DNA of 64,000 nucleotides from Eubacteriales bacterium (GCA_045588575.1 JAZNEJ010000018.1:16257-80256), one strand, 5' to 3'; counted from the first letter of the stretch, positions 34,768-46,291 are shown. The notes: a model not told the origin generated them from the letters alone. A program made the numbers and translations.

Positions 34768-35316
34768 TTACGTATTATATTGCTCGTTTAAGAATTCCTT
34801 AACCCAATTAAGCACTTCGGGGGAATTTAAGGGAACTTCACCCAACACCTCTCTTAATTCCTTGGTGTAAAGCTTAACCGATTTACAAGGTGTTTCGTGA
34901 ACAAAGAGAAAATCAATATCGGGATTGCCCTGCAAAAGCACACAAACGGTGCTTGCTATATCGCCGAGCGGAGTAAAATCAATGTTATTGGTATCAAAGG
35001 TTGCTGAAACTACTGTTCCGTGGTTTTCGGAATCGTCTTTTTCACTAACAGATGATATGGTAACAGTTCCGCCTGCTTGCTCGCTTGCGAGCTTTAAAAG
35101 GGGAATACCCATACCGACTTTTCTGGTGGTTCGGGTGGTGAAAAAAGGGTCTGAAACGGAATTTAACATCTCTTTGGTCATTCCCGTTCCGTCATCTTTG
35201 ATTTTTAAAGTTAAAATTCCGTTTTTATCTTCATTTAAGAGTATTTCAATGTTTTTTGCTTTTGCTTTAACGGAATTCATCGCAATATCAAGAATATTTA
35301 AAGAAAGCTCTTTCAT
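34768..35316 (-). CDS. Stand-alone histidine-kinase-like ATPase (HATPase_c only; no HisKA/DHp, no sensor)
   Basis: 182 aa with N-box NILDIAMNS, G1 DDGTGM and G2 GMGIPL. Its start overlaps the PHP gene stop (ATGA). Confidence 0.8.
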   Translation of the reverse strand: MKELSLNILDIAMNSVKAKAKNIEILLNEDKNGILTLKIKDDGTGMTKEMLNSVSDPFFTTRTTRKVGMGIPLLKLASEQAGGTVTISSVSEKDDSENHGTVVSATFDTNNIDFTPLGDIASTVCVLLQGNPDIDFLFVHETPCKSVKLYTKELREVLGEVPLNSPEVLNWVKEFLNEQYNT

Positions 35317-36044
35317 AAACCGAGCGCTTTGAAAAAGGCGTTTGTTAAAGCCTTTTCGTCGCCGAGCGCCTCCTCTTCCAAAGAAAGTCTGTTTACGGCC
35401 TCACTTATATCCCAAAGATGATGAGAGTCTGAATTATAAAGAAATTTTGCATTTTTAATTGAGTATTTTTCAATGCATTCTTCTTTATTCAACCTTGAAT
35501 TAAGCTCAATAAGATTAAAACCGTATTCGGAAGGAATTGTGCCGAGAATTGCAGCCATTCCGTTCGAGGTTCTGTCAATATGAGCGGGGAAAACTGCGGC
35601 GTTATATTTTTTTGCTTCAGAAATAGCATCGTCAACAGTTAATGAGGTTGCATTTATAAGCAAAAGATTTTCAGTGTCAATTACGTTGTCATCGGAATCA
35701 ACTATAAGCTGATTTCCGAAGATTTCGGTTTTGTTTTCAACAGGCAAAAGCTTTGTTTTAACAAAACTGCCAAAAGACAAGGCGTCTTGTTGGGAACGGA
35801 AAAGCAATACCATATGAATATCTTCTGCGGTAGTAAGCTCAATTCCTGCTATCGGCAGAATATTAAAATATCGGCAACATTCAAAAAAAGCGGGAATATT
35901 TGCAGTGGAATTGTGGTCGGTTAGAGCAACTATTCCAAGACCTTTAATGTGCGCCATTCCTGCAATGTTTGCCGGAGTCATATCATCGTCTGCACAAGGT
36001 GAAAGGCAGGAATGAATGTGTAAGTCGTAAGCAAAACTTTTCAT
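35313..36044 (-). CDS. PHP-domain phosphoesterase
   Basis: 243 aa with YDLHIHSCLSPCADDD and ALTDHNS, typical of the PHP metal-binding motifs. ATGA overlap with the upstream DRTGG gene. Confidence 0.85.
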   Translation of the reverse strand: MKSFAYDLHIHSCLSPCADDDMTPANIAGMAHIKGLGIVALTDHNSTANIPAFFECCRYFNILPIAGIELTTAEDIHMVLLFRSQQDALSFGSFVKTKLLPVENKTEIFGNQLIVDSDDNVIDTENLLLINATSLTVDDAISEAKKYNAAVFPAHIDRTSNGMAAILGTIPSEYGFNLIELNSRLNKEECIEKYSIKNAKFLYNSDSHHLWDISEAVNRLSLEEEALGDEKALTNAFFKALGL

Positions 36045-36373
36045 AAACCGAGTATTTTTCCCAGTTCAACCGAAACTTCAAAGGAGTTTTTGGGAGAACG
36101 AAGGAGATTTATTTGTTTTGATTTCGCAATTGAAATAAGTTCATCGGAAATTTCGGCATTTTCGGTTATTATAATGCAAGAAACGTCCGCAAGAGAAGCA
36201 ACTGCCAAAACGTTTACGTTGGTCATTATGGTAATCCAAGCGTAATCGCTTTTTGCTCTACCCATTACCCAACTTAAAAGGTCGCCGGAGTAACCGCCCA
36301 AAACTTCTCTTTCGGGCTCGGCTAAATTAACCGTTTCGAGAGATAAGGTTTTTATTAAGGCTTCCAGTGTCAT
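36041..36373 (-). CDS. DRTGG-domain protein (copy 2)
   Basis: 110 aa, similar in length and layout to the 38128..38484 protein. Its start abuts the HydS-like stop with no gap. Confidence 0.7.
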   Translation of the reverse strand: MTLEALIKTLSLETVNLAEPEREVLGGYSGDLLSWVMGRAKSDYAWITIMTNVNVLAVASLADVSCIIITENAEISDELISIAKSKQINLLRSPKNSFEVSVELGKILGL

Positions 36374-37669
36374 TTACTCGCCGCCTTTCTTTTTGCGCAT
36401 AACACGCAGATAACGCTCACGGAAACGCATAATGCAATCGTCTTCAGAGGCTTCGCCTGAAACTATGTCTTCGGCGAGAGCTCTGCAAGAGGGAGCACCG
36501 CAAGAGCCGCAGTCGAGGTCGGGAAAACGTGAACAAATATTCTGAATTTCCGACATCTTTTGCAAAGCGGAATCCATATTGTCATCAAGACGTAAAATGG
36601 GGTTGTGGGTAAGTTGGTTTTTCCAAAGATATTCCTCGGGCACGGGGCTTTGATTTTCGTCTTCCCAAACGCCGTTTATGCGGTTTTGAGAAACCGGCAA
36701 ATAACGTTTAAGATTTTGAAGCCTTGCCTTTGAAATATAAGGATTAACAATATTGAGCGCACCGCCGACACAACCGCCGTTGCAAGCGTTTAATTCTATA
36801 AACTCAAGATTTTGAATGTTTCCGTTTTCAATTTCGTCAAGAACTTTTATAACGTTCTCAATTCCGTCTGCCGCAAGGTAGCGGTCGTTGAAAAGAGAAA
36901 CGGATTCGCCGCCGGAAGCGGCCCAACCCACGCCTATAAGTCCTGTTTTGCAAAGACTTTTAGGCTCGTCTATTTTTTTCATTGCGGGAATCAGTCTGAA
37001 ACAAATTTCGCTCATTGAAAGAGCTCCGTCAACCTCGCTCTTATCAAGACCGATGGTGTTTCGCACGTAGCTTACCTTTGCGGGACAGGGAGATATGAAG
37101 AAAACTCCTATATCATCATATTTGAGCTCGGGGTGCTTTTCCATAGCGGCTTTTTTCGCAAGCTTTGCGGCAAGCTCGATTGGCGGTAATAAGGGTAAAA
37201 CGTTTTCGCAGAGTGAAGGGAATCTTACGGCAATTATTCGAACGACGGCAGGACATGCAGAACTTATAACGGGCTTGGGAATGTTGTCGGCGTGAAGAAA
37301 TTTGCGAGTGTATTCCGAAATTATTTCGGCAGCGCTTGCAACTTCAAAAACATCGTCGAAGCCAATTTCCAAAAGTCCCGTGAGAATGAGGTCGAGGTCG
37401 TCGATATTATCGAATTGGCCGTAAAGAGTAGGGGCGGGAAGAGCTATTTTGTATTTAAAAGACTCAATAACCGAAGCGTCGTCAAAGCTTGCCTTCTTTG
37501 CCTTGTTGGGACAAACGCGAATGCATTCTCCGCAGTCTATGCAAAGCTCGGATTTAATAACGGCGTGGCCGTCACGTATACGAATTGCCTCGGTGGGACA
37601 TCTTTTAAGGCAGGTTGTACATCCTTTGCATCTTTCTTTAAGAAGATAAACAGAGTGTAAAACTGACAT
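36374..37669 (-). CDS. hydS: Sensory-type [FeFe]-hydrogenase-like protein (HydS-like; 2x[4Fe-4S] + H-domain + C-terminal 4-Cys motif, no PAS)
   Basis: 431 aa with two CxxCxxCxxxCP motifs (C14-C24, C43-C53). H-cluster-like motifs are SSACPAV (res 136-142), SPCPAK (C195) and ELNACNGGCVGG (C296, C300). C-terminal C387-x2-C390-x4-C395-x16-C412. Confidence 0.8.
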   Translation of the reverse strand: MSVLHSVYLLKERCKGCTTCLKRCPTEAIRIRDGHAVIKSELCIDCGECIRVCPNKAKKASFDDASVIESFKYKIALPAPTLYGQFDNIDDLDLILTGLLEIGFDDVFEVASAAEIISEYTRKFLHADNIPKPVISSACPAVVRIIAVRFPSLCENVLPLLPPIELAAKLAKKAAMEKHPELKYDDIGVFFISPCPAKVSYVRNTIGLDKSEVDGALSMSEICFRLIPAMKKIDEPKSLCKTGLIGVGWAASGGESVSLFNDRYLAADGIENVIKVLDEIENGNIQNLEFIELNACNGGCVGGALNIVNPYISKARLQNLKRYLPVSQNRINGVWEDENQSPVPEEYLWKNQLTHNPILRLDDNMDSALQKMSEIQNICSRFPDLDCGSCGAPSCRALAEDIVSGEASEDDCIMRFRERYLRVMRKKKGGE

Positions 37670-37706
37670 AAAAACTCTCCCTTCGTAAAAAGAATGAATT
37701 TAAAAA

Positions 37707-38135
37707 TCAGAACAAAACATCCATAGTAACAACGGTTCCTTGACCTACAACCGATTGAATATCAAGCATATCGGTGTATTTTTTCATGTTCGGCAAGCCC
37801 ATTCCGGCGCCGAAACCGAGAGAACGCACGTTGTCTTTTGCGGTGGAATAGCCTTCTTGCATGGCAAGCTCGATGTTTTCAATTCCCGGTCCTTTATCGC
37901 TTAAAACGATTCTTACGCGGTCGTTGTAAACAAAGACGTCGGCTGTTCCGCCGTTTGCGTGAATTACCATGTTGATTTCGCCCTCATACATAGCAATTGA
38001 AACGCGTTTTACAACATCGGGGTCGATGTGAAGCTGACGTAATAATTTTTTGACGTTAACGGAGGCTTCGCCCGCAGAGGTGAAACTATCGCCGTCAACG
38101 TTAAAATGAAATCTTACGGGATTGGAGTTATCCAT
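37707..38135 (-). CDS. RsbW/SpoIIAB-like Ser/Thr kinase-type ATPase (HATPase_c_2-like anti-sigma regulatory factor family)
   Basis: The track ORF extends to 38216. I prefer the ATG at 38135 (MDNSNPVRF...), which overlaps the DRTGG stop (ATGGATAA). G1 DKGPGI, G2 GFGAGMGL. 142 aa. Confidence 0.75.
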   Translation of the reverse strand: MDNSNPVRFHFNVDGDSFTSAGEASVNVKKLLRQLHIDPDVVKRVSIAMYEGEINMVIHANGGTADVFVYNDRVRIVLSDKGPGIENIELAMQEGYSTAKDNVRSLGFGAGMGLPNMKKYTDMLDIQSVVGQGTVVTMDVLF

Positions 38136-38484
38136 TGATAACACAACCGCCGTTAAGGCCGTTATCAAAAAGCTTTCCGCAAGCAGGATACATGCGTTCA
38201 TCGGAAGCCAAAACAACTATTCCGGATTCATCTGCAAGGCGGATAACATCGTCAGCAGGCTGTTTTCCTCTTACAAAAACGATACAACGCATATCCATCA
38301 TTACGGCTGTTCTTACAACTTGCATATTTACAAGACCGGTAATTAAAACCGCTTGGTCTTTTACAAATGCAAGGACATCGCTCATCATATCGGAAGCACA
38401 GGCGGAATGAACCTCGGATTCGAGCTTGTCTTCGCCGCAAAGAACGCGAGCTTCAAGAAGAGATGCAATAGTACTGATTTTCAT
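38128..38484 (-). CDS. DRTGG-domain protein (copy 1)
   Basis: 118 aa with LITGLVNMQVVRTA and CIVFVRG blocks, as in DRTGG-domain proteins. Confidence 0.7.
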   Translation of the reverse strand: MKISTIASLLEARVLCGEDKLESEVHSACASDMMSDVLAFVKDQAVLITGLVNMQVVRTAVMMDMRCIVFVRGKQPADDVIRLADESGIVVLASDERMYPACGKLFDNGLNGGCVING

Positions 38485-38513: not shown

Positions 38514-39005
38514 TCAATACTTTTCGAGTATTTCGGGGATTTGTGCTGCAGTAAGCTTGCCGTAAACGTCATCGTTAACGGTCATAACGGGAGCAAGACC
38601 GCAACAGCCGATGCAACGGGTTGCAATAAGAGAAAACTTTCCGTCGGGAGTAATGCCGCCGGATTTGATATTGAGAATTTGCGATGCCTTATCGAATACT
38701 TCCTGAGCGCCTTTAACGTAGCAAGCGGTGCCAAGACAAATTCCAACTTCATACTTGCCTTTGGGCTGAATAGAGAAGAAAGAATAGAAGCTTACAACAC
38801 CGTATACTTCTTCAAGCGGAAGATCCAAGCCTTCTGCAATAAAGGTTTGAACTTCGAGAGGAAGATATCCGTAGATTTCCTGTGCTTTTTTAAGAACTTG
38901 AATAAGAGCACCGGGAACGTTTTTGAAATCGGCGATAACAGCATCGAGTTTTGCGTGCTTTTCAGCCGAGTCCGTAAAGGGAACAATCTGCAACTTGTTT
39001 TTCAT
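38514..39005 (-). CDS. hydC: NuoE-like [2Fe-2S] subunit of hydrogenase (HydC/HndA)
   Basis: 163 aa with Cys pattern CLGTAC...CIGCCGLAP. It is the first gene of the operon. RBS GAAGGAGG. Confidence 0.9.
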   Translation of the reverse strand: MKNKLQIVPFTDSAEKHAKLDAVIADFKNVPGALIQVLKKAQEIYGYLPLEVQTFIAEGLDLPLEEVYGVVSFYSFFSIQPKGKYEVGICLGTACYVKGAQEVFDKASQILNIKSGGITPDGKFSLIATRCIGCCGLAPVMTVNDDVYGKLTAAQIPEILEKY

Positions 39006-39093: not shown

Positions 39094-39122
39094 ATTATAA
39101 CATAAATTAAGATGAATGTCTA
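39094..39122 (-). promoter_or_regulatory. Proximal promoter candidate of hyd operon (TAGACA-17-TATAAT)
   Basis: On the minus strand, TAGACA at 39122-39117, a 17-nt spacer, and TATAAT at 39099-39094. It lies about 90 nt upstream of the hydC ATG and downstream of the 39168-39195 terminator. Confidence 0.45.
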
Positions 39123-39167: not shown

Positions 39168-39195
39168 AAAAAAACTTCCCTCGGGAAGAGGGAAG
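39168..39195 (-). terminator. Intrinsic terminator ending the upstream non-coding unit
   Basis: Minus strand reads CTTCCCTC-ttccc-GAGGGAAG followed by U7 (plus-strand A-run 39168-39174). Confidence 0.75.
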
Positions 39196-39318
39196 CTGAT
39201 ATGTAAATTTGTTTATAAGGTTTTATTGAACAACTGTGTGTTTTTACAAAGCAATACTAGATTTCTTTGATGCAAACCTCCTTAAAAGATTTTAAAAAGA
39301 AACCTTGAGTTCAATTGC

Positions 39319-39449
39319 TGCATTGGACTCACCCTTTCACTGAAGTTGAGAGCTGTTTTGTGCATTGGACTCACCTCTCTGAATAGACACAACAGAATTA
39401 AAAGTGTTGCCGGGAAAGTTGCCTTTTAATAGTTTTTTGGACTCAACCC
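39319..39449 (-). repeat. Three direct copies of GGGT(T)GAGTCCAA motif (two are a perfect 15-mer GGTGAGTCCAATGCA)
   Basis: Plus-strand TGCATTGGACTCACC occurs at 39319-39333 and 39361-39375 (15/15 identical, 42 nt apart). The third copy, TTGGACTCAACCC, is at 39437-39449. Confidence 0.9.
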
Positions 39450-39468
39450 TTTCCTTTATCTTGTCTAT

Positions 39469-39497
39469 ATTATAGCAAATAAAAATGATAATGTCAA
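39469..39497 (-). promoter_or_regulatory. Perfect consensus sigma-A promoter with extended -10 (TTGACA-17-TGcTATAAT)
   Basis: On the minus strand, TTGACA at 39497-39492, a 17-nt spacer, TG at 39477-39476, and TATAAT at 39474-39469. Confidence 0.65.
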
Positions 39498-45060: not shown

Positions 45061-45090
45061 ACAGTTCGCAATTTTGCGAACTGTTTTTTA
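45061..45090 (+). terminator. Intrinsic terminator (between convergent genes)
   Basis: ACAGTTCGCA-attt-TGCGAACTGT followed by T6. It overlaps the stop of the minus-strand CDF gene. Confidence 0.75.
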
Positions 45091-45987
45091 ATGCGGCACC
45101 GTTTCAACGGTTATGCCTTTAATTATTGAAACCTCTTCTTTAATTTCCTTTTTGATTTTTTCGGTAATATTATAGACGTCTTTAAAAGAAAATGTTGAGC
45201 TGATTGCTATTTTTAAATCAACATAGCCTTTATTACCGAATTTTCTTGTGCGAAATGAAATAATTTCTTCTATATTTGCGTTTTTTGAAATGATTTCTTT
45301 TATTTTTTCTTGATAACGGTTTTCTAAAGAGGAATCAATCATATCTCTTAAAGCGATTACAAGAAAATCAAATCCTATTTTAATAATAAAAACGGAAACG
45401 GTTAAGCAGGCTACAAAATCGGCTTTCGGAAACCCTAGCATAGCTCCTATTATTCCAATAAAAGAAGCAACGGAAGAAAGCGCGTCGGAACGGTGATGCC
45501 AAGCGTCTGCCAAAAAAGCGGACGAGTTGATTTTTTTGGCGTAATATTTGGTGTAATGGTACATTGCTTCTTTTACAATTATTGAAATTCCTGCGGCAAT
45601 TAAGGCTATTAAACCGGGTTTTTTAATAGTTTCGCAAGAATTTATTAAAAGGCTTAAAACGGCTGTTTTTGATATTTCAAATCCGGTTATCAGTAGGATA
45701 GCGCCTAAAAAAATCAAGGCTACCGATTCAAACCGTTCATAGCCGTAAGGATGTTTTAAATCGTTTTCTTTTTTTGAAAGCTTAACCCCGAAAAAAGCAA
45801 TAACGGTTGTTAAGAGGTCGGAAAGAGAATGAATTGCATCGGAAACCATAGAGGAGGAGTTTCCCGAAAATCCTGCGAATAGTTTAAAAACTGTTAAAAT
45901 AAAATTGCCTAAAATGCTTGCTGCGGACATTTTTTTAATAGCGGATTTTTCATAGTCTTTATGAAAATCCGCTTTTGTTTTTTTCAT
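45088..45987 (-). CDS. Cation diffusion facilitator (CDF) family metal efflux transporter
   Basis: 299 aa with six TMs, HSLSD and HHRSDALSS metal-site motifs, and a C-terminal cytoplasmic domain. Confidence 0.9.
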   Translation of the reverse strand: MKKTKADFHKDYEKSAIKKMSAASILGNFILTVFKLFAGFSGNSSSMVSDAIHSLSDLLTTVIAFFGVKLSKKENDLKHPYGYERFESVALIFLGAILLITGFEISKTAVLSLLINSCETIKKPGLIALIAAGISIIVKEAMYHYTKYYAKKINSSAFLADAWHHRSDALSSVASFIGIIGAMLGFPKADFVACLTVSVFIIKIGFDFLVIALRDMIDSSLENRYQEKIKEIISKNANIEEIISFRTRKFGNKGYVDLKIAISSTFSFKDVYNITEKIKKEIKEEVSIIKGITVETVPH

Positions 45988-46012: not shown

Positions 46013-46052
46013 AAAAAAGCATCTGCGGAACTTAATGCTGTCCCGCAGATGC
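46013..46052 (-). terminator. Leader terminator upstream of CDF gene
   Basis: Minus strand reads GCATCTGCGG-14 nt-CCGCAGATGC (10 bp perfect) followed by U6. It ends about 25 nt before the CDF start codon. Confidence 0.7.
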
Positions 46053-46110
46053 TGTAAAAAGCTCTGCTGTCATTCGAGATGACCCGGCTATATGCCTGTT
46101 CAGATTGGTA
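46013..46110 (-). promoter_or_regulatory. Candidate metal-responsive riboswitch/attenuator leader (possibly czcD/NiCo-like)
   Basis: Upstream GCAGA can pair with TCTGC of the terminator 5' arm, giving an antiterminator. There are small hairpins GGC-auaua-GCC and GUCAU-cucga-AUGAC. ACAGG, CCGGGUC and GCGGGAC elements are reminiscent of NiCo conserved blocks. Class assignment is from memory only. Confidence 0.35.
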
Positions 46111-46171
46111 TTAATTTGTAAATGGAACTCTACACTTTATGATATGCTGATATTTGCAAAAAGGTGAGAAT

Positions 46172-46214: not shown

Positions 46215-46291
46215 TGGTCCGAGTGACAGGAGTCGAACCTGCGGCCTCTTGAACCCCATTCAAGCGCGCTACCAAGCTGCGCTACACCCGG
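46215..46291 (-). tRNA. tRNA-Pro (anticodon GGG), CCA encoded
   Basis: Cloverleaf folded by hand. Acceptor CCGGGUG/CACUCGG, D-arm GCGC-AGCUUGGUA-GCGC, anticodon arm CUUGA-AUGGGGU-UCAAG, T-arm GCAGG-UUCGACU-CCUGU, discriminator A plus CCA. Confidence 0.9.

Follow-up and report, generated by a model that had tools for sequence, protein, structure and literature searches.

Stand-alone RNAs of the CsrB/RsmZ type have their own promoter and terminator and carry several copies of a motif that mimics a ribosome-binding site, which in CsrB is a GGA placed many times in hairpin loops, with CsrA/RsmA as the partner protein. Firmicute CsrA is controlled by the protein FliW and is not known to be controlled by an RNA. 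Among Firmicute small RNAs, RosA, which sponges RoxS and FsrA in Bacillus subtilis, and RsaI of Staphylococcus aureus present G-rich sites that resemble a Shine-Dalgarno (SD) sequence. Here, we describe a promoter-to-terminator unit in a 64,000-nucleotide (nt) stretch of DNA from a Eubacteriales bacterium (GCA_045588575.1, JAZNEJ010000018.1:16257-80256; hereafter the window), located directly upstream of hydC, the first gene of a hydrogenase operon. The unit could be a new small RNA gene that is restricted to one clade, stands alone and acts via repeats resembling ribosome-binding sites, a reading to which we give about an even chance of being right. Its parts, in the order of transcription and including the open reading frame (ORF) that starts within the second repeat, are as follows.

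39469..39497, minus strand: promoter P1, TTGACA (39497-39492), a 17-nt spacer and TATAAT (39474-39469), scoring 12/12 in the promoter scan
39433..39454, minus strand: repeat A, GGAAAGGGTTGAGTCCAAAAAA (GGAAAGGGUUGAGUCCAAAAAA), SD-like and without a start codon, ~10-30 nt from the predicted 5' end
39410..39418, minus strand: 9-nt segment CTTTCCCGG, in which CCCGG is invariant in the alignments
39360..39380, minus strand: repeat B, AGAGAGGTGAGTCCAATGCAC (AGAGAGGUGAGUCCAAUGCAC), with Shine-Dalgarno, 5-nt spacer and AUG (39365-39363), conserved across lineages
39282..39365, minus strand: ORF-B, MHKTALNFSERVSPMQQLNSRFLFKIF, 27 codons plus stop, beginning at the AUG of repeat B, its stop UAA (39284-39282) abutting GGAGG in the loop of hairpin H3
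39318..39338, minus strand: repeat C, GAAAGGGTGAGTCCAATGCAG (GAAAGGGUGAGUCCAAUGCAG), invariant in all lineages bar one A/G position
39259..39305, minus strand: hairpin H3, AGGUUUCUUU ... AAAGAAAUCU, with AAGGAGG in its loop, predicted in every lineage
39168..39197, minus strand: intrinsic terminator with a 10-bp stem, 5-nt loop and U7 (stem-loop 39197-39173, T7 ending at 39168)

P1 also carries the TG of an extended -10 element (39477-39476, at -15/-14), and its transcript is predicted to start near 39462. Pattern counts over the 64-kb window found TTGACA-N14-TG-N-TATAAT at a single site without mismatch, which is P1, and at four sites with at most one mismatch, against 0.03 expected; the hydC promoter described below (P2) is among the four. 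The terminator (AGCTTCCCTC/TTCCC/GAGGGAAGTT in DNA, AGCUUCCCUC/UUCCC/GAGGGAAGUU in RNA) had a predicted hairpin energy of -14.9 kcal/mol and was the top-ranked terminator of the region in the scan. The predicted RNA is ~295 nt long in the window and 240-270 nt in relatives. The original prediction, made from the same DNA, had named both ends, and both were borne out: a sigma-A promoter at 39497-39469, matching at 12/12 with the TG, and a strong terminator at 39197-39168. Its statement that no ORF exceeds 27 codons is correct when counted from the ATG at 39365, the longest minus-strand ORF in the unit (39282-39392) having 36 codons if read from a TTG.

Between promoter and terminator lie three direct repeats of GGTGAGTCCAA(TGCA), a feature that the original prediction had overlooked. 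The 11-nt core of the repeat occurs three times in the whole window against 0.39 expected, and no further copies or complements above chance were found in the 64 kb. The layout is that of a Shine-Dalgarno sequence and a 5-nt spacer, followed by AUG-CA in repeats B and C and by AAA in place of the AUG in repeat A. Repeat B shares an exact 15 nt with repeat C, whose RNA consensus across lineages is GAAAGGGUGAGUCCRAUGCAG (AUG at 39323). Copies A and B retain their core across lineages, that of A being TGA(G/T)TCC(A/G)AA in all of them. The copies are spaced by 72 and 42-43 bp, and only the 15-21-nt cores are shared. Their GAAAGG-GUGA-UCC matches, in three blocks, AGAAAGGAGGUGAUCC, which we take to be the complement of the 16S rRNA 3' end in its standard bacterial form rather than the host's own. 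The invariant stretch spans about -17 to +6 relative to the AUG, which is approximately what a 30S subunit covers on an mRNA during initiation. Structure prediction gave folds around the repeats that vary between lineages, which fits recognition as sequence and not as fold; a hairpin that exposes the SD of repeat B and buries its AUG fits all lineages, with no double changes. As read by eye, the CUUUCC of the 9-nt segment at 39410-39418 can pair with the GGAAAG of repeat A. Most simply, selection would act on the repeats as sites that bind ribosomes and are competent for initiation, or as sites for a factor recognising such a sequence, and not on their products.

To follow the unit across genomes, a HydC scan with one genome per GTDB species (80 loci fetched) was extended by HydC and SipL homologue lookups and by a metagenome scan (which supplied L177), giving 192 fetched loci and 1.24 Mb in total. 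The unit was present in 15 fetched loci of five lineages: the window, L183 and L184 (lineage 1); L001 and L185 (lineage 2); L188 (lineage 3); L081-L085 (lineage 4); and L086, L087, L177, L190 and L191 (lineage 5). A profile search of all 192 loci returned full-length matches in those 15 alone. Single-sequence and profile nhmmer searches, together with reading by eye, found the RNA in only one of the 80 HydC species loci, the closest (L001, HydC 79% identical), and not in the other 79. The original prediction had proposed conservation upstream of orthologous operons as a test; the unit is conserved in the five lineages, though nearly all of the species loci lack it. Many apparent terminators upstream of hydC in relatives belong to neighbouring genes. 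Every unit sits between hydC and the divergent gene pair sipL-spoIVA on its other flank, and the adjacency of sipL and hydC is exclusive to this clade. A mobile-element origin was also considered, and no match to the RNA was found in plasmids and phages.

Identity between lineages is 50-57% for SipL and 76-79% for HydC, and copy C is nonetheless invariant. The hexamers, 17-nt spacing and TG of P1 are likewise invariant while the spacer sequence varies, and P1 is perfect in all 15 RNA-bearing loci where the fetched DNA reaches it. The terminator occurs in four stem versions (GCUUCCCUC/GAGGGAAG, CCUCUCCGA/UCGGAGAGG, GAUCCUCUC/GAGAGGAUC and AUCUCCUCCC/GGGAGGAGAU), which lie out of register in the alignment and were compared by direct reading; all of them pair, with predicted energies of -12.5 to -19 kcal/mol. 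In H3, GGUUUCC...GGAAAUC is replaced by GGaCCGCC...GGCGGCC in the L087 lineage (L087, L177), where three pairs are changed on both sides (UUU/AAA to CCG/CGG). RNAalifold runs with six and nine sequences supported only the terminator and H3 as common structure. Judged from these comparisons of sequence, the unit is real, under selection and restricted to a narrow clade.

A covariance-model search of Rfam 15 returned no family at its gathering score in the region, which agrees with the earlier statement that no known RNA family could be recognised. The best match at E<=10 was the PyrR binding site (RF00515), with 27.1 bits against the 54 needed and most of the score contributed by the terminator. 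H3 and the terminator loosely resemble its anti-antiterminator and terminator, and repeat B of the window is preceded by CAGAGAGG; unlike a PyrR site, however, CAGAGAGG is not conserved in relatives, no pyr genes lie downstream and the homologous RNAs of L087, L085 and L191 had no Rfam match at E<=1, and the assignment was rejected. A literature search on hydrogenase-associated RNA motifs and on DRTGG signalling yielded nothing usable. Own promoter and own terminator, both conserved, together with the lack of a conserved coding frame and of an Rfam match, favour the first of the two options in the original prediction, a stand-alone small RNA. With fair confidence, we regard it as a transcription unit of its own rather than the output of the sensor.

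If so, the consensus sigma-A promoter would drive the RNA, and an efficient intrinsic terminator would end it just upstream of P2; the terminator would be constitutive, with no detectable alternative structure regulating it. The working parts would be the three 15-21-nt copies of an initiation region, carried on an RNA whose 3' body would consist of H3 and the terminator. Copy A, near the 5' end and devoid of an AUG, probably binds 30S subunits as a stabiliser, and copies B and C would start tiny ORFs whose peptides are not conserved. The RNA, once transcribed, would engage ribosomes or a factor recognising the initiation region, and would then act in trans, either by mimicking a ribosome-binding site (as decoy or sponge) or as a small RNA undergoing translation. 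Candidate actions could range over a decoy for ribosomes or a factor, a sponge for a C/U-rich RNA and a small RNA that is itself translated. A more specific proposal, which we consider quite improbable, is that the RNA is an abundant decoy whose three copies titrate 30S subunits, a translational regulator or a C/U-rich small RNA, the titrated factor also acting on genes that begin with the 21-nt copy C sequence (21-mer) in other gut Clostridia. As a variant of this proposal, the repeats would pair with the segment of hydC encoding CIGCCGLAP (predicted duplex -21 to -25 kcal/mol in four lineages), and hydrogenase synthesis would be coupled to translation capacity.

The exact 21-mer GAAAGGGTGAGTCCRATGCAG also occurs as a single copy in about six unrelated human-gut bacterial contexts among loci L091-L182 (for example L158 10979-10998, L142, L097, L113 1204-1223, L130, L140 4236-4255, L181 and L151 175-194). 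In one of these it supplies both start codon and ribosome-binding site to the gene of a small membrane-anchored protein downstream of hpf, where three diverged subfamilies have different flanks and an identical 21-mer. Directly downstream of agrB-agrD it opens ORFs of two or three codons (MQ*, MQN*), and upstream of secreted-protein genes it opens MQL* or MHR*. The 21-mer is always oriented with the neighbouring genes and placed at a ribosome-binding-site position, and its neighbours (AgrB, HPF, unannotated secreted proteins) share no family. The recurrence may reflect chance, shared descent or a common regulatory site, and was taken as support for reading the repeat as an initiation region. 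A metagenome scan with copy C gave 92 contigs including one hydC locus, a count not shown to exceed chance plus general enrichment of SD-like sequence, and an 18-mer scan of a viral collection gave a single match, in high-GC coding DNA, equal to chance. In one contig (L134, OIZX01023148.1), at about position 1098 in motif orientation, hpf-type sequence (as in L158) lies upstream of the 21-mer and agr-type sequence (as in L130) downstream; rather than recombination, an assembly chimera with its junction at the 21-mer is the most likely explanation for this contig.

Whether the unit could instead act on hydC in cis depends on what lies between the terminator and the gene.

39094..39122, minus strand: promoter P2 of hydC, TAGACA, 17 nt and TGTTATAAT, 11/12 with TG, bounding the RNA and lying outside it
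38514..39005, minus strand: hydC, encoding a NuoE-like 2Fe-2S subunit, first gene of the operon (Pfam PF01257, E = 1.5e-49)

A second promoter, described as weaker, had been predicted at P2 and is present (TAGACA-17, 11/12 with TG); its key bases, TATAGAC and TG(T/C)TATAAT, are invariant in every lineage. In all distant relatives without the RNA, the sole promoter before hydC is an extended -10 element, TGnTATAAT, at a distance of 60-120 nt. Because P2 is conserved and has this equivalent in relatives without the RNA, it represents the ancestral promoter of hydC, downstream of the terminator. The terminator between P1 and hydC is conserved in structure, as a terminating leader would have it, and the separate promoter that follows it is conserved in all lineages. 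No conserved antiterminator was found in any of the five lineages by nascent-transcript folds, duplex searches or ribosome-constrained folds. The best upstream pairings of the terminator 5' arm reached -7 to -9 kcal/mol at positions that are not homologous between lineages, and the terminator remained intact in all five when the regions covered by ribosomes (placed at the ORF-B or ORF-C stop codons or five codons before them) were forced to be unpaired. Together with the independence of the RNA from the sensor cassette (see below), these results speak against the second option of the original prediction, a terminating leader or riboswitch. Within lineage 4, the RNA of L081 differs from those of L082-L085 by only three substitutions, at RNA positions ~175-190 and ~232-240. 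They change the H3 loop from AGGAGGCAAUCA to AGGGGGCAGUCA and the terminator 5' arm from GAUCC to GAUUC, and the two segments can pair at about -8 kcal/mol.

These data bear directly on a conditional terminator in cis, in which P1 would be a second strong hydC promoter and its transcripts, usually ended by the terminator, would continue into hydCBA once the fold is altered by a bound factor or by translation of the small ORFs. The unit is always directly upstream of hydC, and its short ORFs with strong initiation and non-conserved peptides are like regulatory leader ORFs; H3 has its 5' arm within the ORFs, and the stop of ORF-B is adjacent to GGAGG. The four terminator 5' arms are all CU-rich and could pair at -7 to -9 kcal/mol with SD-like stretches, and it is precisely in these parts that L081 and L083 show their three differences. 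We nevertheless regard this explanation as rather doubtful, since the conserved, ancestral P2 intervenes between terminator and hydC, the alternative pairings are weak and differ in position by lineage, and the terminator survives every ribosome-occupancy constraint tried. Moreover, AGGAGG and the long ORF-B are both missing in L087-type RNAs, and most related operons lack the unit. Translation of the same ORFs could also be the purpose of the unit, as a short mRNA making small peptides (the 27 aa of ORF-B, the 10-13 aa of ORF-C, or both). In the window, ORF-C (13 codons) begins at the repeat C AUG, in the frame of ORF-B, and two near-optimal initiation regions with AUG are present. A length of 27 codons is kept by ORF-B in four of five lineages (the window, L001, L188 and L081), and a pair of indels in the window (one base less between B and C, one more between C and H3) restores spacing and frame. 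L001, L188 and L081 further share the C-terminal ..AAFRR(W/R)FP..(I/T)Q with synonymous CCG/CCT/CCA changes. Such an mRNA is nonetheless unlikely. In L087 and L177, ORF-B is cut to 9 codons; for most of its length the window peptide bears no relation to those of the other lineages, and the nucleotides of repeat C are invariant while their reading frame differs (RVSPMQ in the window, KGESNA in L001, L188 and L081). ORF-C peptides also differ among lineages (MQQLNSRFLFKIF, MQHSDGGF(RL/LL/HS), MQASHTDRRAG), and repeat A has no start codon. As the peptides of both ORFs vary, no conserved protein-coding frame is present. ORF-B was separately considered as SpoVM, the 26-aa SpoIVA partner, on account of the sipL-spoIVA neighbours, and this was rejected on the sigma-A type of the promoter and the lack of similarity to the SpoVM sequence.

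At the level of DNA, the repeats could be three operator sites for a regulator of sipL-spoIVA, P1 or P2, with the RNA incidental. Three direct repeats 72 and 42-43 bp apart between divergent promoters, a 21-bp invariance typical of protein-binding sites and the clade-exclusive adjacency to sipL would fit such an arrangement. It would, however, leave the consensus promoter, the pairing-preserving changes of the terminator and H3 without explanation; the repeats are non-palindromic and lie 100-300 bp from the supposed target promoters, and in its other contexts the 21-mer points with the genes at a ribosome-binding-site position. We consider operators very unlikely. The stand-alone small RNA has its own difficulties, and several observations weigh against it. 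The transcript and its ends are predictions, conservation extends to five lineages only, and structural support is thin, with two-sided pair changes confined to the terminator and H3. The unit was found solely between sipL and hydC, which is equally compatible with a role in cis, and from position alone it could act in this way on the structural hydrogenase genes. Pairing searches of the window and of hydC identified no trans target or binding partner. The 27-codon length of ORF-B in four lineages, aided in the window by the -1/+1 indel pair, and a stop that abuts GGAGG hint that translation up to GGAGG matters. Finally, the L081/L083 substitutions in the pairable AGGAGG and terminator 5' arm segments are a weak hint of an antiterminator, or a coincidence.

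The search for targets of a stand-alone RNA covered the window and hydC. The repeat is partly complementary to two segments of hydC, at codons 10-15 and at codons ~130-140 (window ~38590-38620), the latter encoding the 2Fe-2S ligand motif RCIGCCGLAP with the pairing blocks CUGCAUYGG and CUYGCNCCC. The duplex predicted at the RCIGCCGLAP site reached -21 to -25 kcal/mol and was among the best non-self sites in L001, L188, L087, L177 and L190, whereas the window (-14.8 kcal/mol) and L081 (-18.3 kcal/mol) gave weak values; with the 5' region of hydC, L001 and L188 alone showed strong pairing. The third base of the Ile codon agrees with the A/G position of the repeat in three of five lineages, which is not significant, and a complement of 7 of 8 nt within a 490-nt gene is not improbable by chance. 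Accounting for these results, hydC was not called as a target. Searches with blastn-short gave only matches of 9-14 nt at chance level, duplexfold output with the whole RNA was dominated by unrealistic long loops, and the 64-kb window yielded no C-rich partner RNA. Elsewhere in the window, a NiCo riboswitch (46036-46113, minus strand), scoring 46.5 bits where 37 is the gathering score, directly precedes a cation-efflux (CzcD-type) gene (45088-45987, minus strand), with a tRNA gene (46218-46291, minus strand) just upstream of the riboswitch, an ordinary known arrangement.

Downstream of P2, the hydC start at 39005 and a ten-gene operon were found as predicted; the genes encode, in order, HydC, DRTGG, HATPase_c_2, a HydS-like [FeFe]-hydrogenase domain protein, DRTGG, PHP, HATPase_c, and HydD-like, HydB and HydA proteins. 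None of the ten has a DNA-binding domain, in line with the original prediction, which had proposed the RNA as the missing output of an H2 sensor. A HydS-like gene is present in 35 of the 80 species loci and the order hydC-DRTGG-HATPase-HydS-DRTGG in 16, only one of which (L001) has the RNA; the other 15 have the cassette in the same order and lack it. Conversely, the RNA is intact in L177 and L190, where the whole cassette is lost and hydC runs straight into HydD/HydB, and in L188, where only the second DRTGG gene and HATPase_c remain. Between L177 and L087, of which only the latter has the cassette, the RNAs are ~95% identical. The RNA thus neither travels with the cassette nor depends on it, and the idea of a sensor output is therefore unsupported. 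The six-gene cassette itself (DRTGG, HATPase_c_2, HydS, DRTGG, PHP, HATPase_c; window 34768-38484) is present or absent between very close relatives (L086/L087 versus L177/L190), and behaves as a module that the bifurcating hydrogenase operon can do without. In two loci without the RNA (L008, L010), several repeats resembling TATCTATATA or TATCGATAA lie ~60-120 nt upstream of hydC and are possibly the operator array of a different regulator.

If real, the RNA would add a new small-RNA family for Oscillospiraceae-like gut Clostridia, in which hardly any riboregulators have been characterised, and its design, with three copies of a full translation-initiation region, would be unusual. The attractive idea that the RNA is the missing output of the putative H2-sensing HydS cassette is also removed; gains and losses of the cassette between close relatives are independent of the RNA. 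Practical value is limited by the narrowness of the family, whose five lineages are all uncultured.

Comparison with described systems places the unit close to several of them in outline. Like ToxI/ToxN type III systems, it has a promoter, direct repeats, a terminator and a downstream gene. In contrast to the head-to-tail 36-nt units of ToxI, its cores of 15-21 nt are spaced by 72 and 42 nt, and the downstream genes are hydrogenase subunits and the sensor cassette, none of the ToxN family, with hydC having its own promoter. With leader-peptide attenuators (trp/his/pyrL, erm/cat) it shares short ORFs with strong ribosome-binding sites followed by a terminator upstream of an operon. Here, however, there are no regulatory codons, no conserved arrest peptide and no ribosome-dependent alternative hairpins; the peptides vary, alternative hairpins were not found in the folds described above, and a separate promoter follows the terminator. 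Repeat A is like a STAB-SD (cryIIIA type, GAAAGGAGG) in being SD-like (GGAAAGGG..), free of a start codon and near the predicted 5' end. Whereas a STAB-SD lies in the 5' untranslated region of a long mRNA, the RNA described here would end at ~295 nt, and the motif recurs twice more with start codons.

The likeness to CsrB/RsmZ lies in the general plan set out at the beginning, in which promoter and terminator belong to the stand-alone RNA itself and a motif mimicking a ribosome-binding site is present several times. The motif of this unit differs from the CsrB GGA in being a full initiation region of 15-21 nt (GGGUGAGUCCAAUGCA), present in just three copies; GGA does not occur in repeat C (GAAAGGGUGAG), and the repeats are not consistently presented in hairpins. 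As in RosA and RsaI, purine-rich SD-like sites on a Firmicute small RNA could titrate a C/U-rich regulator, GAAAGGG being complementary to seeds of the CCCUUUC type. Unlike a sponge site, for which this would be needless, the conserved unit runs on through AUG-CA. Bacterial small RNAs as a kind are already known, and what appears to be new, on the sequence evidence presented here, is this clade-restricted RNA with its unusual repeat design.

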